NCBI GenBank assembly: GCA_964507055.1
Contig: CAZDOJ010000001.1
Span: 337,313 to 401,312 of the forward strand
DNA from: an uncultured Gammaproteobacteria bacterium
GTDB lineage: Bacteria; Patescibacteriota; Microgenomatia; Levybacterales; UBA12049
Reading direction: 5' to 3'
DNA: 64,000 nt
This document shows, one piece after another, positions 28,913 through 50,358 of this stretch. How positions within the stretch are numbered: the first letter of the stretch is position 1; each line of letters opens with the position of its first letter. The notes under the pieces are model-generated. The model saw only the letters and a list, made by a program, of their open reading frames with translations. It made no database searches and was not told where the DNA came from. The position numbers were made by a program, and so were the translations under genes.

Positions 28913-28983
28913 CTACCGAGCCTGGATTCGAACCAGAATAAACAGCTCCAAAGGCTGTTGTCCTACCGTTAGACGACTCGGTA
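28913..28983 (-). tRNA. tRNA-Gln (anticodon UUG)
   Basis: Manually folded cloverleaf: a 7-bp acceptor stem starting U1:A72, U8, a D arm, an anticodon stem ACAGC/GCTGT with loop CUUUGGA, and T-loop TTCGAAT. The anticodon is TTG and CCA is not encoded. Confidence 0.8.
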
Positions 28984-29720: not shown

Positions 29721-30419
29721 ATGCCTCACATGGCAAGTTTTAATAGAGATAATCAATCAGGCGGAAATAGAAATTTTGGCAAACCACGATTCAATAATAA
29801 TCGCTCAGAACGTCCAGAACTTTTCAAAACTACATGTGCAAGTTGCGGTAATACGTGTGAAGTTCCATTTAGACCAACAGGAAGCAAGCCTGTCTATTGT
29901 CGTGATTGTTTCAAGAATCAACCAGCTGATGCTTCACGTCGATCCGATTCACGAAGTTTTGATAGACCACAGCAAGGAGATCGCCAGATGTTTGATGCAG
30001 TATGCTCAAACTGTGGTAATGCATGTCAGATCCCATTCCGTCCATCACAAGGTCGAGATGTTTTCTGTTCACGATGCTTTGATATGAACAATGGTGAAAC
30101 ACACAGACCAAGCCGTTCAAATGATCGTCCATCTTTTAAACGTGATGAAAACCAAGGCAGATCAAACGATGCCCCAAACTACAAAGCACAATTTGAAGCC
30201 TTAAATGCAAAAATGGATAAAATTCTAGAATTACTTACTCCAGCACAAGTTGCGACAGAACCATTAGAATCTATCCTCGAAGAAGAAGTAATTGAGGAAG
30301 CAGTTGCTGAAGCTTTGGCAAAACCAGAAGAAAAGAAGCCAAAGAAAAAAACAGCATCAAAGACTCCAGCAAAAGAAAAACCAGATACAAAGAAAAAATC
30401 TACTTCAAAAAAGAAATAA
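29721..30419 (+). CDS. basic protein with two tandem zinc-ribbon motifs and low-complexity R/G/N-rich and K/E-rich tails; putative nucleic-acid-binding protein
   Basis: Two copies of C-x2-C-x14-C-x2-C-F, each containing VPFRP/IPFRP: CASCGNTCEVPFRPTGSKPVYCRDCF and CSNCGNACQIPFRPSQGRDVFCSRCF. The protein ends in a K-rich tail. Confidence 0.5.
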   Translation: MPHMASFNRDNQSGGNRNFGKPRFNNNRSERPELFKTTCASCGNTCEVPFRPTGSKPVYCRDCFKNQPADASRRSDSRSFDRPQQGDRQMFDAVCSNCGNACQIPFRPSQGRDVFCSRCFDMNNGETHRPSRSNDRPSFKRDENQGRSNDAPNYKAQFEALNAKMDKILELLTPAQVATEPLESILEEEVIEEAVAEALAKPEEKKPKKKTASKTPAKEKPDTKKKSTSKKK

Positions 30420-31378: not shown

Positions 31379-31527
31379 ATAATCACCTCCCTTCTCTATG
31401 GTTGAGTATAGTCGTTGATAATAATAACTTAGTAATAAATATGGTATTAAGCAGATCAATTATTTTATTAACTAGACGAAGATCATTCATTTTTTGTATA
31501 CTAATTATATGTGCTAAGCACGCTACT

Positions 31528-34083
31528 ATGAAATCTGTCCAACTTTCTCTCCTCTTTAAAAGTATTGTTTTTACGCTCATTGCATTAGTATGGTTAACAC
31601 AAATGAATCCTGTCTACGCGGCCGATCCTGAGCTTGTGGGTGGAAGTTCTGTAAGTGGCTCAAGCGGGGTTGCGACACCTATAACCGACCTTCAAGTGTC
31701 AGGAACTGGAAATCCTACTGTTCCAGTGAAGCTTCGAGTGAGCAGCGGAACTCTTTCTATGTCGATAACAACAGGTTTGACATTTACAGGTGGATCTACG
31801 GGTTCAACATTACAATTTAGCGGTTCCAAAGATAACGTAAATGCTGCTCTGGCGACATTAACCTACACACGATCTGGTGCTGGGAGTGATACATTGGAAG
31901 CATCATTGGTGAATGCGGGAGAAGTATTTTTCTCAGACAATGGACATCTTTATGAATATGTTTCTTTTACTGCGACTTGGACCAATGCTAATACCAACGC
32001 ACAGGGCAGAACAAAATATGGAGCAACTGGGTATTTAACGACAATTACTTCACAAGCTGAGAATGATTTCGTCGCAGCCCGTCTTTTGAATGCAGGTTGG
32101 ATGGGAGCAAGTGATTCATCTCTCGAGGGTGATTGGAAATGGGTAACCGGCCCTGAATCTGGAATATCGTTCTGGTCAGGATTATCGGGTGGATCTGCAG
32201 TTTCTGGTAGATACGCAAATTGGGGCACGGGTGAACCAAATAATGCGGGTGATGAAGATTGTGCCCAATTTCTTACCGGTGGTACTGGAAAATGGAATGA
32301 TCTTCCATGTAGCACAACAACTTTGCCAGGATATGTCGTCGAATATGGTAGTAGTACGCCATTGGATGTCTCCTCGAAAAATGTTTCCATCACAACTGTC
32401 GTTAATCCAACAGCAAGTAGTTTTACTCCAGCTGATAATGCAACCAATGTCACAGCAAATGCAAATTTAGTAATTGTCTTTAGTACATCCATCACAAAAG
32501 GTACTGGAAGTATACTTTTGAAAAAAACATCAGATGATTCGACTGTTGAAACGATTGATGTCACAAGTAGTCAAGTTACTGGTGGAGGAACTGCGACAAT
32601 AACAATTAATCCCAATATGACATTTGATGAAAACACTGGATATTACGTCACAATTCCTGGCACAACTTTTCGAGATGGTTCAAGTAATTACTATGCTGGA
32701 ATTTCCACCAAAACGACGTGGAATTTTACAACCGGTGATTTCACATCTCCATCATTAAGTTCTGTCACAGCATCTTCAATTGGTGATACAACAACAACTA
32801 TTACCTGGACTACCAATGAGAATGCTTCGACAAGAATTTCCTATGGTTTGACTGACGCATATGGTACGACTACATCCGAGACTGATACATCACCTCGTGT
32901 AACCGCACATACAGTTGTACGAACTGGCTTACTTGCTTGTACAACCTATCATTACTCTGTCTATTCACGCGACGCCTCTTCAAATACCTCGACCTCAGAA
33001 GACAAAACATTTACAACAACTGGTTGCCAATCCAATACTCCTCCTGTGAATGCAACTTCAAGTGCTGTTACTGTAAGCTCTGGAGGGACGACTACTTTGA
33101 CTGAAGGCACAAATCAAATCAGTGTTGAAACTCCAAGTAACTTTACTAATACAGCATCAACAGTTGTCATTCAGGTAAAGGCTTTAGAAGATACGCCAAT
33201 ACTAAATACACTTGGTCGACCAGCAGATGTGCCAAATGAAGTGGGCAATATTGTCTTTGATGTCAAAGCAATTATTAATGGGACAACAGTTCTAGATAAT
33301 TTTAATGCCCCTGTCACAATTACCTACCAATATACTGACGCAGATGTTGCGGGACTCGATGAATCTACTTTTTGGCTTTATCACTATCACAATGGTGCTT
33401 GGACACCGCTTAACTCATGCAACATAACCACAGCCACTAATACGATTTCGTGTACAACGCAAAGCTTCTCTATTTTCGGATTGTTTGGAAGGCAAAAAGC
33501 ATATGCCTCAGAAGTAAAAAATCCATCATGCACTATTACCAAACCCGATCATGCACCTGATCTTTTCCAAATTGATACTTCAAAGAATAAAGCGACATTG
33601 CACTTTACACCACTGATGGATAATGTTACCAATTATTTTGTGGCGTATGGATATTCTGCTGGAGACGAACGATTTGGAGTTCTTACCCAACAAGGACCTT
33701 CGACAGGTGTACTGTCATATACAATTAATGATCTCTCTCCCAATACGACATACTATTTCAAAGTGCGAGCACAAAACGATTGCATGCCAGGAGATTGGGG
33801 AAATACGATGTCTGTCAAAACGACCAATGGATCAACAGTTAAAAATTATAAAAATTTCGTGGCTCGTGTAATGAGTTATACACCACGACAAACAACAACA
33901 GTTACCAATGCTAAAACAACTTCAAATAAAACGTGTGAATATACAGTGAAGAGTGGTGATTCTCTTTGGAATATTTCACAATCCAAATTAGGATCTGGTG
34001 CAAAATATACAGAAATTATGAAATCAAATAACCTTTCTTCTCCATCACTCAATGTTGGACAAAAATTAAAAGTCGGTTGCTAA
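31528..34083 (+). CDS. secreted multidomain surface protein: signal peptide, C-type lectin-like domain, Ig-like (Big_5/SbsA-type) domain, two FN3-like domains, C-terminal LysM
   Basis: Signal peptide MKSVQLSLLFKSIVFTLIALVWLTQMNPVYA. The CTLD at about 31942..32346 has WMGASD...GDWKWVTG...YANWGTGEPNN...EDCAQ...KWNDLPC...GYVVEY. The LysM at about 33940..34077 (YTVKSGDSLWNISQ...GQKLKV) is flanked by Cys residues. Confidence 0.7.
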   Translation: MKSVQLSLLFKSIVFTLIALVWLTQMNPVYAADPELVGGSSVSGSSGVATPITDLQVSGTGNPTVPVKLRVSSGTLSMSITTGLTFTGGSTGSTLQFSGSKDNVNAALATLTYTRSGAGSDTLEASLVNAGEVFFSDNGHLYEYVSFTATWTNANTNAQGRTKYGATGYLTTITSQAENDFVAARLLNAGWMGASDSSLEGDWKWVTGPESGISFWSGLSGGSAVSGRYANWGTGEPNNAGDEDCAQFLTGGTGKWNDLPCSTTTLPGYVVEYGSSTPLDVSSKNVSITTVVNPTASSFTPADNATNVTANANLVIVFSTSITKGTGSILLKKTSDDSTVETIDVTSSQVTGGGTATITINPNMTFDENTGYYVTIPGTTFRDGSSNYYAGISTKTTWNFTTGDFTSPSLSSVTASSIGDTTTTITWTTNENASTRISYGLTDAYGTTTSETDTSPRVTAHTVVRTGLLACTTYHYSVYSRDASSNTSTSEDKTFTTTGCQSNTPPVNATSSAVTVSSGGTTTLTEGTNQISVETPSNFTNTASTVVIQVKALEDTPILNTLGRPADVPNEVGNIVFDVKAIINGTTVLDNFNAPVTITYQYTDADVAGLDESTFWLYHYHNGAWTPLNSCNITTATNTISCTTQSFSIFGLFGRQKAYASEVKNPSCTITKPDHAPDLFQIDTSKNKATLHFTPLMDNVTNYFVAYGYSAGDERFGVLTQQGPSTGVLSYTINDLSPNTTYYFKVRAQNDCMPGDWGNTMSVKTTNGSTVKNYKNFVARVMSYTPRQTTTVTNAKTTSNKTCEYTVKSGDSLWNISQSKLGSGAKYTEIMKSNNLSSPSLNVGQKLKVGC

Positions 34084-34116: not shown

Positions 34117-34845
34117 ATGGAAGATCATACAATTCGACTCAATAAATATCTTGCCAATCTCGGTATCTGTGCAAGACGTGAAGTCAAACAACTGCTTAAA
34201 GAAAAAATAATTACCGTTAATGATGAGCGAGCTAAAGAACCAGGTATTCGCATTGATCCGCAGAAAGATGCTATACGAATTGATGGTAATAAAGTTAAAT
34301 CTCCTACATTAGTCTATTATGTACTTAACAAGCCAAAAGGAATTGTTTCGACAACAGCTGATGAATTTGGACGCAAAAATGTAACGACATTGGTTCCGAA
34401 AGATCAACGCGTCTATCCCGTAGGACGATTAGATAAAGACACCACAGGATTAATTATCCTTACCAATGATGGTGAATTAACTAATCTGCTTACCCATCCT
34501 CGGTATCATGTCGATAAAGTGTATAGGTTGGATATCGCAGGGCGATTGGATAAATTCCAACTCAAGGCATTGCGAGATGGAGTCCTTCTTGACGATGGTA
34601 TCACCTATCCAGCAGAGGTTAAAATAATAAGTGAATCAAATGGAAAATCGATTGTAGAAATGAAGATTCATGAAGGACGAAATCGGCAAATTAGAAGAAT
34701 GTGTGAGACTGTCGGAGCGACTTTAACTGCATTGCAGCGAGTTCGGTTTGGGCCAATTGCCTTGAGTGGACTCAAAGAAGGTACCTATCGAGATCTTACC
34801 AAAAAGGAAATTGATTCACTTAAAAGTGTTGCACAAAAGGTATAA
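34117..34845 (+). CDS. rRNA pseudouridine synthase (RsuA/RluB/RluF family)
   Basis: The N-terminal S4 domain (RLNKYLANLGICARREVKQLLKE) and the catalytic VGRLDKDTTGLIILTNDGE block. Confidence 0.85.
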   Translation: MEDHTIRLNKYLANLGICARREVKQLLKEKIITVNDERAKEPGIRIDPQKDAIRIDGNKVKSPTLVYYVLNKPKGIVSTTADEFGRKNVTTLVPKDQRVYPVGRLDKDTTGLIILTNDGELTNLLTHPRYHVDKVYRLDIAGRLDKFQLKALRDGVLLDDGITYPAEVKIISESNGKSIVEMKIHEGRNRQIRRMCETVGATLTALQRVRFGPIALSGLKEGTYRDLTKKEIDSLKSVAQKV

Positions 34846-34894
34846 ATTACCGCTTGCACCAATATTTCCTATAGGCTATAATTTATTTATTCCT

Positions 34895-37237
34895 ATGCAA
34901 ATATTTAAGAAACTATTTTTACTATTCATTTTTTCATTTTTGCTTATCGCACAAACAAATGTCGCTCAGGCACAAGTCGCTTCAACACGCCTTGGGGGCA
35001 TGAATCTCGAAGGATATTGCCGCAGTCTGAATCAAGGTGGATCAACTTTAAACGGTAATACATGGCAATGTGAATCAGGTTCAACAATTAATTTGGATGC
35101 TGCATGTCGATGGCAATATAATAACGCTACATCAGTTGCACGACAAGAAGTTACAAATAATCCGTATACGTGGGCATGTTATACAGCAGGATCGACACCA
35201 ACTCCTACAATTTCTCCAACTCAAGCACCTACGCCAACACAAATTGTCTCGACACCAACTCGAGCAGCAAGTCCTACTCCGACGAGAATGGTTACTCCGA
35301 CTCCGTTGCCCACAACGGGAACACTTGTTATCTTTGATGATGCTCTGGCATCAGGATGGACAGATGCTTCTTATCGAGCAACTAATACTATCGTGACAAC
35401 TCCAGTTGGCAATGGCACTCGATCTATTTCATCTGTATTGCAATCCGATGGCGGATTTAATCTGCAATCAATCAGTGGCATCCAAACAACAAATAATACG
35501 GTTTTACATTTTATGCTTCGAGCATCTGCAGCAAATCAGCGTTATGAAGTCTATGTAGATACTGTATATGGACAACCTTTGCGTGCACCAGTTTCTCTCG
35601 CAAATTATGGGGGCCAACCAACAACAACAGCATGGCGAACCTATGATATCCCTTTAAGTGATTTAGGCGGTGGAAATGTTTCGCTGCGTGACATCGCAAT
35701 CCATGATGAATCAGGTACTAACCAGCAGGCAGTTTTTATCGACCAAGTAGAACTTCGATTGATTAATGTTTCCGTCACTCCGACGTTATCACCAACTGTA
35801 ATTCCAACTATCTCAGTTACCCCGACTCCAACAAGAACAATTACGCCTACACCCACTGCGACTCCAGCTGCAGGAGCAACTGTAACAGTATTTGCAGATG
35901 CACTCGCAAATGGATGGACAGATGCGTCATATGCAACAACAAATACAATTGTTACAAATCCAGTTGGAAGCGGAACAAATGCTATTGCTTCAACAATTAA
36001 TCGAGATGGTGGCTTTGATCTGCAATCTGTGAATGGTGTACTAACTTCGAGTAATACAGTGTTGCACTTTATGCTCCGTGCATCAACAGCAAATCAACAA
36101 TATGAAGTGTATGCTGATACACAATACGGTCAGCCACTTCGTGCACCAGTTTCTCTCGCAAATTACGGTGGTCAACCTATAACAACTGCATGGCGAACCT
36201 ATGATATTCCATTGAGTGATTTAGGTGCGACCAATGTCTCTCTTCGTGACATCGTTATTCACGATGCTGTTGGTGCAAATCAAGGAGTCGTTTATATTGA
36301 TCAAATTGAGTTACGCTCAGTCAGTGGATCTGTAACACCAACCGCTATGCCAACAGTTGCAATAACCTCGACCCCATCTCCAACGCCGATTGCTAATACA
36401 GGAGTGAGAAAAAGTATTTATGCAATGACTCCGCAAGAAGTTACGCGACTAACAAATGCATTCAATACTATTCGTGCAAATGGTGTCTATCAGGATTTTA
36501 TGAATCGTCATATGCAATCGATGATGACATTGACCCAACCTAACGATCCTACGACACTTAGAAATGTTGCACATCGTGGACCATCATTCTTACCTTGGCA
36601 CCGTTCAATTACAAGAGAGTTTGAATTAGCTTTACAATCTGCAGATCCTTCGGTGACATTACCATATTGGCCATTTGAACAGGAGACTCCTGGGCAATTA
36701 CCACGGGTTTTCTCCGCAGCCTATTTTGGTGGTGATGGAAATCCTTCATTTGGAAATAGAGTTATCGATGGACCATTTGCGTCTTGGCAAATTACTCGTA
36801 TGGTTGGACGCGATCCCGAAGGGCAACCAACCGCTCCAACGCAAGCTAATGTAAATGCTCTGATGCAATATACAAACTACGATTCTGCTCCATATAATGA
36901 AACTTCAAGTGGTTTTAGAAATGGTATTGAAGGATGGATTGGAGCAAATGGACAGTGGAGTATGCATAATCGTATCCATGCATATGTCGGCGGGGATATG
37001 CTTCCTCGAGATGATATGAGTACTAATGTCGTTAATGATCCAATCTTTTGGCTCGTTCATGCAAATATTGATCGCATCTGGTGGCAATGGCAACAAACTC
37101 GTGGCATCAATAATTATCAACCAGTCAGTGGTGGGCCGACTGGACATAATTTAAATGATCGAATGCAGTTCCTCAATAGCAATACAACTCCTGCAAGTAA
37201 TTTGGATATCCGAACGATGGGATATTCCTATCAGTAA
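34895..37237 (+). CDS. secreted tyrosinase (type-3 copper polyphenol oxidase) with an N-terminal Cys-rich module, PT-rich linkers and two tandem copies of an unassigned ~148-aa domain
   Basis: Signal peptide MQIFKKLFLLFIFSFLLIAQTNVAQA. The CuA site HRGPSFLPWHRSITREFE fits the tyrosinase CuA pattern H-x4-F-L-x-W-H-R-x2-T-x3-E. The CuB site DPIFWLVHANID fits D-P-x-F-[W]-x2-H-x3-D, together with HNRIHAYVGG. Confidence 0.85.
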   Translation: MQIFKKLFLLFIFSFLLIAQTNVAQAQVASTRLGGMNLEGYCRSLNQGGSTLNGNTWQCESGSTINLDAACRWQYNNATSVARQEVTNNPYTWACYTAGSTPTPTISPTQAPTPTQIVSTPTRAASPTPTRMVTPTPLPTTGTLVIFDDALASGWTDASYRATNTIVTTPVGNGTRSISSVLQSDGGFNLQSISGIQTTNNTVLHFMLRASAANQRYEVYVDTVYGQPLRAPVSLANYGGQPTTTAWRTYDIPLSDLGGGNVSLRDIAIHDESGTNQQAVFIDQVELRLINVSVTPTLSPTVIPTISVTPTPTRTITPTPTATPAAGATVTVFADALANGWTDASYATTNTIVTNPVGSGTNAIASTINRDGGFDLQSVNGVLTSSNTVLHFMLRASTANQQYEVYADTQYGQPLRAPVSLANYGGQPITTAWRTYDIPLSDLGATNVSLRDIVIHDAVGANQGVVYIDQIELRSVSGSVTPTAMPTVAITSTPSPTPIANTGVRKSIYAMTPQEVTRLTNAFNTIRANGVYQDFMNRHMQSMMTLTQPNDPTTLRNVAHRGPSFLPWHRSITREFELALQSADPSVTLPYWPFEQETPGQLPRVFSAAYFGGDGNPSFGNRVIDGPFASWQITRMVGRDPEGQPTAPTQANVNALMQYTNYDSAPYNETSSGFRNGIEGWIGANGQWSMHNRIHAYVGGDMLPRDDMSTNVVNDPIFWLVHANIDRIWWQWQQTRGINNYQPVSGGPTGHNLNDRMQFLNSNTTPASNLDIRTMGYSYQ
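35324..36320 (+). repeat. intragenic tandem duplication (two ~440-bp units separated by a PT linker) inside the tyrosinase gene
   Basis: Unit 1 (35324..35765) and unit 2 (35878..36320) are about 80% identical at the DNA level. They share identical stretches such as cgtgcaccagtttctctcgcaaatta and gcatggcgaacctatgatat. Confidence 0.8.
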
Positions 37238-47517: not shown

Positions 47518-50358
47518 ATGCACCTAAATCATTTGTCTCAATCTCAAAAAAAGATGATTTCCTATGGTGTTCTTCTCCTCTTTTTATTTATAATCCCTCT
47601 CAATATTATGTTGCTCGATCAGCAGAATGATGTCCGAAGCCGTGCGTCACAAGATCAATCCTTTGCAATTACTGCTCCAGCAGAAAATGGTACCGTGAAA
47701 TCAACAGTGACAATTTCTGCAAATGTTTCAATCCCGATTGGACATCATGGTGTGAAGTTCTTAGTTGATGGTGTTTCTGTCGGATCTGATGACACAGCTC
47801 CATATTTTGTGCAATGGGATTCAACAACTGCACCTGATGGAGAACATACAATTGTTGTAAAAGAAATTAATGAAGAAAAGCCTGATTCCGAACGATCATC
47901 CTCACCAATTAAAGTAAAAGTCATAAATGATCCCAATGATAGGACTGCGGCAGCAGTGAGTGCGATTCAAGAGGATGTCGTTCAGGACAACTTTGCCACA
48001 ATTGCATGGGATACTAACGATAAAGCTTCTTCACAGGTTATTTACAAAAAAGCTGGTGGAACTGATAAATATACTTCGGTAAACACAGTTTTGACTGATG
48101 ATCATTCAGTAGCACTCTCAAATTTGGAACCAAGTACAGAATATGTGTATCAGGTAAAAAGCACTGATGCTGCGGGAAATACGACGTTATCTGATGAGCA
48201 ATCATTTGTGACAGCAGCTGAATCAAACGAAACAATTGGCCAATGGCAAAAAGTAAGTGGATGGAACTTCCCTACTGTTCATGCGTCATTACTTTACACT
48301 GGTGAACTGATGCTCTGGAGCTGGAATCCATCCAATGCTGTGGACGGTACGCAACTATGGAACTACACAAATAACCAATTTACCAAAGTAGGAATTTCAA
48401 ATAACATCTTTTGTGCTGGACAAGCTATGCTTCCAGACGGACGACTTGTTGTTGCTGGTGGTCATATAAATAATAATGTTGGTACAAAAAATATCAATAT
48501 TTATGATCCTGGGACAAAGAAGTGGTCTGCTGGACCCATGATGAAAGATGGTCGTTGGTATCCGACTGTAAATGTCCTTGCAGATGGAAGAACCGTTATC
48601 CTAACTGGTGACATTAATACAAGTACACTTGCAGTTAATCCTGAAATTTACGATGAGAAAACAAATACTGTAACATCAATCCCAAACATCCAAACAAATA
48701 CACTCGCTGCTTATTCTGCAACATTTCCATTTGGTATGAATAAGCTATTTACTATCTCATATGGTAATGCGGATATGTATGTCTTGGACGCTGATGCAAA
48801 GACATGGACATATAAAGGAAAAGCACTCAATACAGGAGGAGCAACTGCACAATACAGACCAGGAAAAATTCTTATGTCAGGTGGACGAGCAGGTAGTGGT
48901 GCTGATAAAAAAGCTGCGATTATAGATATTACTGGAGGGAACTTTACATGGAAATCAGTGGCACCGATGCAATATGGACGATATTTCCACAATCTTGTAA
49001 ATCTTCCTGATGGAAAAGTACTGGCTGTCGGAGGAGGTTCCCCTGATACAAGTGGTACTACTGGACCTTTAGCAAATGAAATTTGGGATCCCGCTACAGA
49101 ACAATGGACAACAGTTGCTCCATTGAGTGTGAAGAGAATGTATCATTCAACTGCGATTCTTCTTCCTGATGGACGTGTCGTAGCATCTGGTGGAAGAAAT
49201 GGTAATGGAGAGAATTATGATGCAGAGATTTATTCTCCTCCATATCTTTTTAAAGGAAATAGACCAACAGTCTCTCAAGCACCGTCATCAATCAATAGAG
49301 GTTCTACAATAACGATAACCACATCAAATGCTTCAACGATCTCACAAGTTAATATGCTTTCTCTCGCTGCACAAACCCATACACACGATATGAGTCAGAG
49401 ATTTGTTCCGCTGCAATTTACGAAAATTGCAAATGGATTACAGGCACAAATCCCAAATGACGAAGCAGTTCTACCTGATGGATATTTTATGTTATTTATT
49501 GTAAATAGTGATGGTGTCCCTTCTGTTGCAAAAATGGTAAAGGTTACAGATCAAGTTGTACCGACCGCTACTCCAACTGTCGTACAACCAACTGCTACCA
49601 AAATACCAACCCCTACTCCTACAAAAACAGCCACGCCAACACCTACAAAGAAAGTAACTCCTACCCCAACACGTTCTGCATATCCGACATTTACTCCTAC
49701 ACCAGTGCCAACAAAGAAACCAACAGCAACAATTGTTCCTACATACACTCCTGCACCAACTCCTACACGAGTTCCTATTGTACGCCCAACTTTGCAGCCA
49801 ACGCCGACGATAAATCCTTCTACAACCAATTTGGCACTTTCTGTTGGATTGCATGGAATTGGTAAAGGTGGAGATAAAATTAGTAAAACATCCATTGGAA
49901 ATATGGATCCATTCCGCAAACAGCGTGTCTTTGAAGTGACTGTAAAGAATTTAGATAATGAGCGAGTGGCATCTGTTTCAGCGTTACTTACCTACAATGA
50001 TCAATTGGGAGTATATCTTGGCTATGCATCTGTTCCATCGCTTACTTCAGGGCAATACCAATTTGTTATCCGTACAGCAAATTATCTAGGACAATCTATT
50101 CCTGCTATACAAAACATTACACAGCAACAATCGAATACCCTTCCTGCGTTGTCACTCGTTGGCGGTGATACCAATAATGATAATAAAGTGAGTGTCTTAG
50201 ACTACAATCTAATTTTTGATTGCTTCAGTGACCTTACAGCCCCAAAGAACTGTACATTGGAGAAGCGTAATGCAACTGATTTGAACGATGATGGATATGT
50301 AAATCAGATTGATTACAATTTCTTCCTGCGAGAACTCTCAGTATTTGAAGGTAATTAA
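47518..50358 (+). CDS. secreted galactose-oxidase/glyoxal-oxidase-like copper-radical oxidase (kelch beta-propeller + DUF1929) with N-terminal Ig/FN3-like domains, a PT-rich linker and a C-terminal dockerin-like module
   Basis: NIFCAGQAMLPDGRLVVAGG corresponds to the galactose-oxidase Cys228 region (SMFCPG...IVVTGG). YHSTAILLPDGRVVASGG matches the Tyr495-His496 region. LPDGYFMLFIVNSDGVPSVAKMVKV matches the galactose-oxidase C-terminal domain. The dockerin-like repeats are GDTNNDNKVSVLDYNLI and DLNDDGYVNQIDYNFFL. Confidence 0.8.
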   Translation: MHLNHLSQSQKKMISYGVLLLFLFIIPLNIMLLDQQNDVRSRASQDQSFAITAPAENGTVKSTVTISANVSIPIGHHGVKFLVDGVSVGSDDTAPYFVQWDSTTAPDGEHTIVVKEINEEKPDSERSSSPIKVKVINDPNDRTAAAVSAIQEDVVQDNFATIAWDTNDKASSQVIYKKAGGTDKYTSVNTVLTDDHSVALSNLEPSTEYVYQVKSTDAAGNTTLSDEQSFVTAAESNETIGQWQKVSGWNFPTVHASLLYTGELMLWSWNPSNAVDGTQLWNYTNNQFTKVGISNNIFCAGQAMLPDGRLVVAGGHINNNVGTKNINIYDPGTKKWSAGPMMKDGRWYPTVNVLADGRTVILTGDINTSTLAVNPEIYDEKTNTVTSIPNIQTNTLAAYSATFPFGMNKLFTISYGNADMYVLDADAKTWTYKGKALNTGGATAQYRPGKILMSGGRAGSGADKKAAIIDITGGNFTWKSVAPMQYGRYFHNLVNLPDGKVLAVGGGSPDTSGTTGPLANEIWDPATEQWTTVAPLSVKRMYHSTAILLPDGRVVASGGRNGNGENYDAEIYSPPYLFKGNRPTVSQAPSSINRGSTITITTSNASTISQVNMLSLAAQTHTHDMSQRFVPLQFTKIANGLQAQIPNDEAVLPDGYFMLFIVNSDGVPSVAKMVKVTDQVVPTATPTVVQPTATKIPTPTPTKTATPTPTKKVTPTPTRSAYPTFTPTPVPTKKPTATIVPTYTPAPTPTRVPIVRPTLQPTPTINPSTTNLALSVGLHGIGKGGDKISKTSIGNMDPFRKQRVFEVTVKNLDNERVASVSALLTYNDQLGVYLGYASVPSLTSGQYQFVIRTANYLGQSIPAIQNITQQQSNTLPALSLVGGDTNNDNKVSVLDYNLIFDCFSDLTAPKNCTLEKRNATDLNDDGYVNQIDYNFFLRELSVFEGN
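49560..49800 (+). repeat. low-complexity Pro/Thr-rich linker-coding repeat inside the oxidase gene
   Basis: It encodes PTATPTVVQPTATKIPTPTPTKTATPTPTKKVTPTPT... This region is the source of the spurious Cys/Arg-rich and Gly/Val-rich antisense ORFs. Confidence 0.8.

Follow-up and report, generated by a model that had tools for sequence, protein, structure and literature searches.

A C-type lectin family of Patescibacteria with a predicted wall anchor and a probable MAIN-type, predicted self-cleaving domain

Background

Leads on how Patescibacteria, the ultra-small bacteria of the Candidate Phyla Radiation (CPR), recognise and hold their hosts are limited to type IV pili and a small number of surface proteins that bind glycans. 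Cultivated members live as epibionts on host cells, and need glycan-binding surface proteins. A gene located at 31528..34083 (+) in a 64,000-nucleotide stretch of contig CAZDOJ010000001.1 (hereafter the window; GC content about 36%) encodes a protein with a lectin domain of the animal type. A sequence-only reading had described the product as a peptidoglycan-tethered lectin, made by a C-type lectin-like domain (CTLD) of the EPN type, Ig-like and FN3 spacers and a C-terminal LysM.

The protein is best viewed as a peptidoglycan-tethered, Ca2+-dependent lectin adhesin for mannose/GlcNAc-type glycans, the head of which is probably held non-covalently after autocleavage, and may be released by force. 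This reading is assigned a probability of about 0.6. The single parts are ordinary; their combination is unusual, and the Patescibacteria family featuring it is large and unreported.

The lectin head

The gene, and the elements found in the distal part of its product, are listed below. Residues are numbered from the start codon at 31528.

31528..34083 (+): coding sequence of the surface lectin, 851 amino acids (aa), ATG at 31528, stop at 34081-34083; from the open reading frame (ORF) and its translation
31645..31920 (+): N-terminal beta-rich module, aa ~40-131, with no Pfam family; from conservation and the AlphaFold2 model
31921..32352 (+): C-type lectin-like domain, aa 132-275, a long-form carbohydrate-recognition domain (CRD) without outer disulfide; from Pfam, phmmer against PDB and Foldseek
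32233..32241 (+): EPN motif, E236-P237-N238, predicted ligands of Ca2+ site 2 and of the sugar 3-/4-OH groups; from alignment to the EPN of langerin
32251..32262 (+): D242-E243-D244-C245, with Glu243 (predicted Ca2+ site 2), Asp244 (predicted site 1) and the first Cys of the inner disulfide; from alignments
32293..32310 (+): W256-N257-D258 (WND, predicted Ca2+ site 2) and C261, partner of C245; from alignments

The lectin domain is real, and its matches lie far beyond chance. Pfam Lectin_C (PF00059) recognises aa 166-264 with 43.0 bits (cut-off 22.6, E 8e-11). A phmmer search of PDB sequences retrieves 107 chains at E<=0.01, with aggrecan, CD23, langerin, MBP and DC-SIGN at the top (E about 1e-10), and the 60 chains listed are all animal C-type lectin domains. 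The AlphaFold2 model of aa 32-290, which was built on 58 sequences and includes both the N-terminal module and the lectin domain, has a mean predicted local distance difference test score (pLDDT) of 93.8 (>90 in the N-terminal module) and a predicted template-modelling score (pTM) of 0.83. Structures matched by the model in Foldseek are the lectin domains of CD23, mincle, Endo180, CEL-I, SRCL and MGL, with probability 1.00 and template-modelling (TM) scores, relative to the target, of about 0.8 (0.76-0.83 for CD23, mincle, SRCL and MGL).

These data bear out the sequence-only reading, which had placed a CTLD at 31942..32346 and had proposed a structure prediction for it. The translation of the interval runs exactly from GHLYEYVS to GYVVEY, and all the motifs quoted in that reading are present: WMGASD (aa 191-196), GDWKWVTG (aa 201-208), GEPNN (aa 235-239), DEDC (aa 242-245), KWNDLPC (aa 255-261) and GYVVEY (aa 268-273). 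The assignment of EPN and WND to the canonical Ca2+ site holds as well, as both align with langerin. Two details have to be amended. The cysteines had been described as paired, which is correct for the inner pair, C245-C261; the outer disulfide is absent, and the domain has therefore a single disulfide. The CTLD had been placed at the N-terminus, and is in fact preceded by a conserved beta module of ~90 aa. Column identity of this module is 55-63% across 120 homologues, and its conservation equals that of the lectin domain; no Pfam family matches aa 40-131 at E<=1.

Residues known to bind Ca2+ in C-type lectins are strongly conserved. EPN is kept in all 119 homologues retaining the lectin domain, WND is found in 119 of 120, and aligns to WND...C of langerin, CD23 and aggrecan. 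In the phmmer alignments E243 pairs with the Glu of the langerin sequence NEHC, and both Cys residues pair with those of the inner disulfide. D196, E200, E236-P237-N238, E243-D244-C245, W256-N257-D258 and C261 are invariant in the 58-sequence alignment (columns D165, E169, E205-N207, E212-C214, W225-D227 and C230 in the numbering of the latter). The standard site map of MBP-A places E185/N187/E193/N205/D206 at site 2 and D161/E165/D188/D194 at site 1; measured against it, the two predicted Ca2+ sites are, as judged from the alignments, intact and strongly constrained.

C245-C261 is also the only Cys pair of the domain, and is invariant; the outer alpha1-beta5 positions carry no Cys family-wide. 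The missing outer disulfide is a variant feature, which does not exclude the domain from the Lectin_C family. A further feature is a family-specific 16-residue insertion (PESGISFWSGLSGGSAV), located before the long loop. Hidden Markov models (HMMs) of the lectin domain, the N-terminal module and the MAIN-like domain described below, run against the six-frame translation of the window, revealed no further copies of any of the three.

A MAIN-like domain and its predicted cleavage site

The Big_5 domain, two FN3 domains and Cys-flanked LysM reported downstream of the CTLD in the sequence-only reading are all present. What had been missed is a conserved 160-aa domain (aa 500-660), which separates the two FN3 domains.

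33025..33507 (+): ZU5/GAIN_B-like domain of the 'MAIN' type, aa 500-660, predicted to be autoproteolytic; from AlphaFold2, Foldseek and profile search
33463..33471 (+): S646-F647-S648, predicted cleavage between F647 and S648, in the turn before the last strand (IFGLFG), between model strands 142-149 and 152-159

Few parts of the protein are as conserved as this domain. In the AlphaFold2 model (aa 498-665, pLDDT 94) it folds into a beta-sandwich of 12 strands, with one helix. When the model is compared to PDB by Foldseek, ZU5 domains of ankyrin-B and ankyrin-R take the first, second and fourth ranks (E 1.3e-3 to 3.5e-3, query TM 0.53-0.58), and the GAIN domain of BAI3 the third (E 2.5e-3); with two further ankyrin ZU5 entries, ZU5 or GAIN structures account for 6 of the top 11 matches. 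These scores are borderline, and consistent with one another.

ZU5, GPS and Nup98 domains have been united, with the prediction that large surface proteins of bacteria generally undergo autoprocessing by ZU5 (Zhang et al. 2012). MAIN domains, the equivalents of GAIN_B in bacteria and archaea, cleave the sequence HFS between F and S in vitro and in vivo, as in YfkN of B. subtilis, and the resulting fragments remain associated; release of the ectodomain triggered by shear has been proposed (Brogan & Rudner, bioRxiv 2026, 10.64898/2026.05.12.724683). The proteins analysed by the same authors feature a signal peptide, adhesion or enzyme domains, MAIN, and a wall anchor at the C-terminus, and the structure-based labels given to MAIN, 'ZU5' or 'GPS', agree with the Foldseek matches of aa 498-665. 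Patescibacteria are not mentioned in the text or in the supplements examined, and only 2 of the 15,000 proteins of that study carry Pfam Lectin_C, 23 LysM and 3 PG_binding_1. In the lectin protein the order is signal peptide, head and stalk, aa 500-660, FN3 and LysM, and the domain is placed between ectodomains and surface anchor as in MAIN proteins. The template is followed exactly, in a phylum not covered by that study, and with a motif lacking His.

The dipeptide F-S is invariant in the close family, and S, H, N, G or E are found at position -2, HFS being present in about 20 of 120 sequences. When 1.84 billion cluster representatives are searched with a profile of the domain, 3758 proteins of 120 to 5400 aa are matched at E<=1e-3, of which 1159 reach E<=1e-10. 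The motif was surveyed in 149 strong domain instances among 50%-identity representatives, and xFS was found in 146 (SFS 63, NFS 27, HFS 18, GFS 15, AFS 9, plus others). The domain ends at a median distance of 176 aa from the C-terminus in the 149 instances, usually before PG_binding_1. Cleavage at SF/S has a precedent in the ZU5-like FIIND of CARD8 and NLRP1, where the second Ser is essential, a buried Phe strains the backbone, and distant conserved His and Glu residues assist; PIDD and Nup98 use HFS (D'Osualdo et al. 2011).

Sequence relationships to ZU5 are indirect. The family profile matches residues 1088-1156 of the giant protein P0198, and Pfam ZU5 matches residues 1035-1103, in the same domain, with 29.9 bits (cut-off 21); this provides a transitive sequence link to ZU5. 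For the region 33145..33480 (aa 540-651) the sole NCBIfam match, which is sub-threshold (14.5 bits, E 0.026), is TIGR04213 PGF_pre_PGF, an archaeal domain located directly before PGF-CTERM anchors. PGF_pre_PGF and aa 500-660 may represent one pre-anchor domain, in archaea and in bacteria respectively. Searched against PDB, the aa 500-660 profile gives weak matches to S-layer Ig-like domains only, and the GPS-like C-terminal fragment nothing relevant. All considered, aa 500-660 probably belong to the MAIN/ZU5 superfamily. A MAIN-like domain with a near-universal F-S shifts the picture from a fixed tether to one that is probably self-cleaved and releasable.

Stalk, wall anchor and start site

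The remaining elements of the protein are the export signal, the stalk and the anchor.

31528..31620 (+): putative Sec-type signal peptide, aa 1-31 (MKSVQLSLLFK, hydrophobic core, VYA/A); read from sequence
32404..32733 (+): Big_5 bacterial Ig-like domain, aa 293-402, part of the stalk; Pfam PF13205, 47.8 bits
32740..33018 (+): first FN3-like domain, aa ~405-497; from the second fn3 stretch and from Pur_ac_phosph_N and PhoD_N matches, conserved in the family
33529..33822 (+): second FN3 domain, aa ~668-765, with a probable C668-C752 disulfide; best Pfam fn3 stretch at aa 677-760
33934..34080 (+): LysM with flanking C803 and C851, predicted peptidoglycan anchor; from Pfam

Lectin_C, Big_5, fn3 (47 bits, in two stretches) and LysM all exceed the curated Pfam cut-offs, so that the three profiles named as a check in the sequence-only reading (Lectin_C 43.0, LysM 46.7, Big_5 47.8 bits) are matched as anticipated. 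LysM (PF01476) covers aa 805-849 (cut-off 20.9), and NCBIfam LysM-type models give partial matches. The second FN3 lies on the cell-proximal side of the predicted cleavage site, and its C668 and C752 are conserved in homologues of the LysM clade. The Cys residues flanking LysM are conserved in the homologues P0002, P0009 and P0013, and probably form a disulfide clamp on the module. LysMs bracketed by Cys are commoner in fungi and plants than in bacteria. The 851-aa protein has ten Cys residues in all, which suggests five disulfides, C803-C851 included; this number would fit an extracellular protein.

The conserved core of the family spans aa ~45 to ~655, and the C-terminus is variable, as seen in the 120 best matches. 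According to precomputed Pfam annotations, their C-termini carry PG_binding_1 in 90 cases, LysM in 12, CarboxypepD_reg in 4, and are unannotated in 14; at least 2 of the latter show a PG_binding_1-like sequence, and one homologue ends in a hydrophobic tail. Unrelated wall-binding modules are thus interchangeable at this end, which strongly suggests that the C-terminus is the cell-proximal anchor. Binding of LysM to peptidoglycan is supported indirectly by the replacement with PG_binding_1, and the swapping of LysM with PG_binding_1, CarboxypepD_reg or a hydrophobic tail strengthens the peptidoglycan tether proposed at the outset.

Public gene calls use an upstream ATG at 31441, 29 codons earlier, and the identical protein P0001 measures accordingly 880 aa. 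The extra residues (31441..31527, +) precede the signal peptide, and nothing in the consensus of the homologues corresponds to them. The signal-peptide region is present in the homologues, and poorly conserved in sequence. The start at 31528 is favoured because homologue N-termini and signal peptide match it, and looks correct on these grounds.

Distribution of the family

At least 840 homologous protein clusters were identified at E<=1e-5, among 8000 candidates scored out of 5.8 billion clusters searched. All derive from metagenomes or metagenome-assembled genomes (MAGs), and the source names, where given, are Paceibacterota, Pacebacteria, 'Patescibacteria group', unclassified 'bacterium' or soil metagenome. 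GTDB species representatives, scanned with two family-specific peptide patterns, gave 63 loci, distributed in Paceibacterota, Saccharibacteria/Saccharimonadales, Roizman-, Zambryskii-, Kaiser-, Magasanik- and Berkelbacteria, and Minisyncoccia; the closest match is 93% identical across the head region. Twelve of the MAGs are labelled as other phyla (Gammaproteobacteria, Kapaibacterium, Limnocylindria), and mislabelling is suspected. The family is confined to Patescibacteria-type MAGs. Together with the GC content of about 36%, this distribution assigns the window to a genome of Patescibacteria. EPN-type CTLDs had been regarded as uncommon in bacteria, which does not apply to this lineage, given at least 840 clusters and at least 63 species-level genomes. 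Canonical C-type lectin sugar sites are hence common in at least one bacterial phylum. Literature searches on bacterial or CPR Lectin_C proteins returned only papers on lectin folds of diversity-generating retroelements (DGRs) and on animal lectins.

No conserved gene neighbourhood was found across four loci (L001, identical to the window, P0009, P0017 and P0033), where the neighbours are unrelated housekeeping genes. Because neighbourhoods are not conserved, the lectin protein appears to act alone. The MAIN-like domain is also found, together with PG_binding_1 or CarboxypepD_reg, under other heads (P0121-P0175, P0141). These include PA14/GLEYA with Big_9, Laminin_G_3 (a ConA-like lectin), Flg_new with Big_7, DUF11, He_PIG, GLUG and a GDSL lipase. 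Reuse of the cassette suggests a general modular system of display and release in these bacteria.

Proposed mechanism and alternative explanations

The signal peptide, as seen in the sequence, would direct export by the Sec pathway. At the opposite end the disulfide-clamped LysM would bind, non-covalently, the peptidoglycan of the producing cell, as suggested by anchor swapping and by the architecture of proven MAIN proteins. A stalk of roughly four domains (FN3, MAIN, FN3, Big_5) would hold the N-terminal module and the lectin away from the wall. E236, N238, E243, N257 and D258, with D196, E200 and D244 at site 1, are the putative Ca2+ site residues. If the established rules of C-type lectins are applied to EPN, Glu and WND, the domain should bind, in a Ca2+-dependent manner, sugars in which the 3-/4-OH groups are equatorial (Man, GlcNAc, Glc, Fuc). 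Likely targets would be glycans of partner cells, either host bacteria or archaea, or matrix polysaccharides. Paceibacteria parasitising methanogens highly express secreted peptidoglycan-binding and Ig-like proteins with similar predicted structures (Kuroda et al. 2024). The MAIN domain would cleave itself between F647 and S648 via an N-O acyl shift, and the last strand (SIFGLFG...) would keep the mature head fragment of 616 aa on a wall-bound stub of 204 aa, until load on the bound glycan frees the head. For the SFS variant, self-cleavage and release under load are given slightly better than even odds.

Several observations weigh against this reading, and most of them would suit an adhesin of the fixed type, in which aa 500-660 are a rigid spacer, xFSxF is a structural motif (buried Phe, tight turn), and a covalent link between lectin and LysM persists. 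The domain shows borderline similarity in fold (E about 1e-3, TM 0.41-0.58), and HMM searches, in Pfam at E<=1 and by profile against PDB, give no direct match of aa 500-660 to ZU5, GPS or FIIND. The protein carries SFS, not the HX(S/T) stressed for GAIN and MAIN, and position -2 is His in about 12-17% of the relatives. The giant proteins P0196 (5419 aa) and P0198 (3349 aa) host 4-7 copies of the C-terminal GPS-like half-domain only; most end with xFS, HFS or HLS, at least one is degenerated to GFG, and because of these repeated FS half-domains the motif could be partly structural. A fixed spacer does not easily explain why Ser at +1 is found in 146 of 149 divergent domains, a strictness far beyond what a turn residue would require. 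In CARD8 and NLRP1 cleavage occurs at SF/S without His, canonical variants are found within the same profile family (HFS and HLS endings both occur among the P0198 copies), and position and architecture agree with proven MAIN proteins. The fixed adhesin has thus a real, though minor, chance of being correct. Other adverse points concern the remaining parts of the protein: the outer disulfide of the lectin domain is missing, a single LysM is usually a weak anchor, and neighbourhoods at the four loci give no hint of a partner or target.

The other explanations differ in what the two ends of the protein bind. Lectin domains of the EPN type can bind GlcNAc, which is part of peptidoglycan, and the family is as broad across Patescibacteria lineages as a housekeeping envelope protein; the lectin could accordingly be directed to the S-layer, pili, wall polysaccharide or peptidoglycan glycans of its own cell, and cross-link the envelope. 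A long Ig/FN3 stalk with a breakaway domain is however typical of outward-reaching adhesins, and sister proteins exchange adhesion, lectin and enzyme heads on the same cassette, as expected for variable external targets, which makes a self-directed organiser quite unlikely. It is less probable still that polarity is reversed, with the LysM/PG_binding_1 end gripping the peptidoglycan of the host, and the protein otherwise free or held at its N-terminus. Some homologues end in a hydrophobic tail or CarboxypepD_reg, the N-terminus is a cleavable-looking signal peptide with no anchor, and MAIN proteins are anchored via their C-termini. Hosts reported for Paceibacteria include methanogens, and methanogenic archaea are not known to have bacterial-type peptidoglycan. 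These features outweigh the proposal, made for archaea-parasitising Paceibacteria, that peptidoglycan-binding domains take part in host attachment (Kuroda et al. 2024). Binding of a protein, or of another ligand that is not a sugar, as in intimin, invasin and many animal lectin-like domains, is held to be improbable to the same degree. Sugar binding is absent from many members of the lectin-like superfamily, and the insertion PESGISFWSGLSGGSAV could make another surface; yet all five ligands of Ca2+ site 2 and the three mapped ligands of site 1, normally lost in domains not binding sugars, are invariant here.

The literature ties CPR bacteria, DGRs and the lectin fold, and CPR genomes commonly include DGR targets with this fold. 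For the window, the reading as a DGR variable protein is nonetheless refuted. No template/variable repeat pair involving 31528..34083 was found in the 64 kb, where direct repeats reside only inside the tyrosinase gene downstream; the domain is a canonical Lectin_C, not a fold of the Mtd/FGE type, is not C-terminal, and its binding residues are invariant rather than hypervariable.

The reading as a releasable lectin adhesin thus brings to attention a large, conserved and so far undescribed family combining an intact Ca2+/EPN site, as predicted, a wall anchor and a joint that force can probably release, a candidate for glycan-based attachment to, and detachment from, the host. The known range of MAIN domains would also grow to include Patescibacteria, anchors of the LysM and PG_binding_1 types, and motif variants without His (SFS, NFS, GFS).

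Other features of the window

Two ORFs overlapping the lectin gene, 31950..32564 (-) and 32189..32470 (+), are regarded as spurious, as both lie inside its conserved coding sequence. The next-but-one gene downstream (34766..37237, +) encodes a secreted protein of 823 aa, with a Cys-rich N-terminus and a C-terminal tyrosinase domain (PF00264, 121 bits). The protein includes two tandem repeats of ~186 aa, with Pro/Thr linkers between them. They correspond to 558-nt direct repeats in the gene (35333-35746 and 35891-36304), which are 72-74% identical. A secreted copper oxidase seems unexpected for a small genome of the CPR type. At 47518..50358 (+) a protein of 946 aa is encoded, which features Big_7, FN3, a Kelch/glyoxal-oxidase/galactose-oxidase-like propeller, a GO-like E-set and a C-terminal type I dockerin; a dockerin-bearing surface protein has been reported to be essential in a cultivated Saccharibacterium. 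Upstream of the lectin gene, 29721..30419 (+) encodes a protein of 232 aa, which carries a pair of treble-clef zinc-finger repeats (PF23477 zf_Tbcl_2, 110 bits) and ends in a tail very rich in Lys. A tRNA gene at 28913..28983 (-) is the sole Rfam family match in the 64 kb (RF00005, 59 bits).

Comparison with known systems

Animal CRDs, such as those of langerin (CD207), DC-SIGN, CD23, MBP and mincle, share with the bacterial lectin the Lectin_C membership and the fold (TM about 0.8), and feature the WIGL-like core, the EPN, Glu and WND residues and the inner disulfide at aligned positions. The bacterial domain is ~25% identical to them, lacks the outer disulfide, and hosts a 16-residue insertion before the long loop. 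In contrast to animal proteins, it is preceded by a beta module instead of a neck or collagen region, and is held by a wall anchor instead of a membrane or collagen stalk.

MAIN proteins such as B. subtilis YfkN display signal peptide, ectodomains, a GAIN_B/ZU5-like sandwich and wall anchor in the order predicted for the lectin protein, and x-F-S in the turn before the last strand is common to both; the products are expected to stay non-covalently associated. The MAIN study centres on Bacillota, sortase or SLH anchors and HXS, whereas members of the lectin family end in LysM or PG_binding_1, and the motif is SFS in the protein described here. Autoproteolytic ZU5/FIIND domains are found in PIDD, UNC5CL, NLRP1 and CARD8. 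Ankyrin ZU5 domains provide the best structural matches, and the SF/S motif is as in CARD8 and NLRP1. The eukaryotic domains are cytosolic; the corresponding domain of the lectin protein is predicted to be extracellular with a disulfide hairpin, and is linked to Pfam ZU5 only transitively.

Fragments of the C. difficile protein CwpV stay associated after cleavage. CwpV has been described as a cell-wall-bound surface protein undergoing enzyme-independent intramolecular cleavage via an N-O acyl shift. CwpV differs in having an unrelated cleavage domain, Thr as nucleophile, an N-terminal CWB2 anchor and no lectin. LysM, Big repeats and a distal C-type lectin-like tip are found also in intimin, invasin and YeeJ. 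Their order is reversed, with an N-terminal LysM and an outer-membrane beta-barrel; the tip has neither Ca2+ nor EPN and binds proteins, and a self-cleaving domain is absent. The lectin protein is not an inverse autotransporter, since it has no beta-barrel domain and its LysM is C-terminal.

Polycystin-1 combines a lectin, Ig-like repeats, GAIN/GPS and a membrane anchor. The logic of this protein and of adhesion GPCRs is the one proposed for the lectin protein: a distal lectin, a stalk of the Ig/FN3 type, a self-cleaving GAIN next to the anchor, and fragments held non-covalently. The lectin protein differs as it is predicted to be anchored to peptidoglycan, in the style of Gram-positive bacteria, and not by seven or eleven transmembrane segments (7TM/11TM), has no known signalling module, and lacks the alpha-helical GAIN_A. 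A bolder view, held to be rather unlikely in its full form, is that the family may be a phylum-wide host-recognition adhesin of CPR bacteria, in which an animal-type Ca2+/EPN lectin, placed on a self-cleaving GAIN-like joint and anchored to peptidoglycan, would grip and then be shed under load, as a bacterial counterpart, or precursor, of the design seen in polycystin-1 and adhesion GPCRs.

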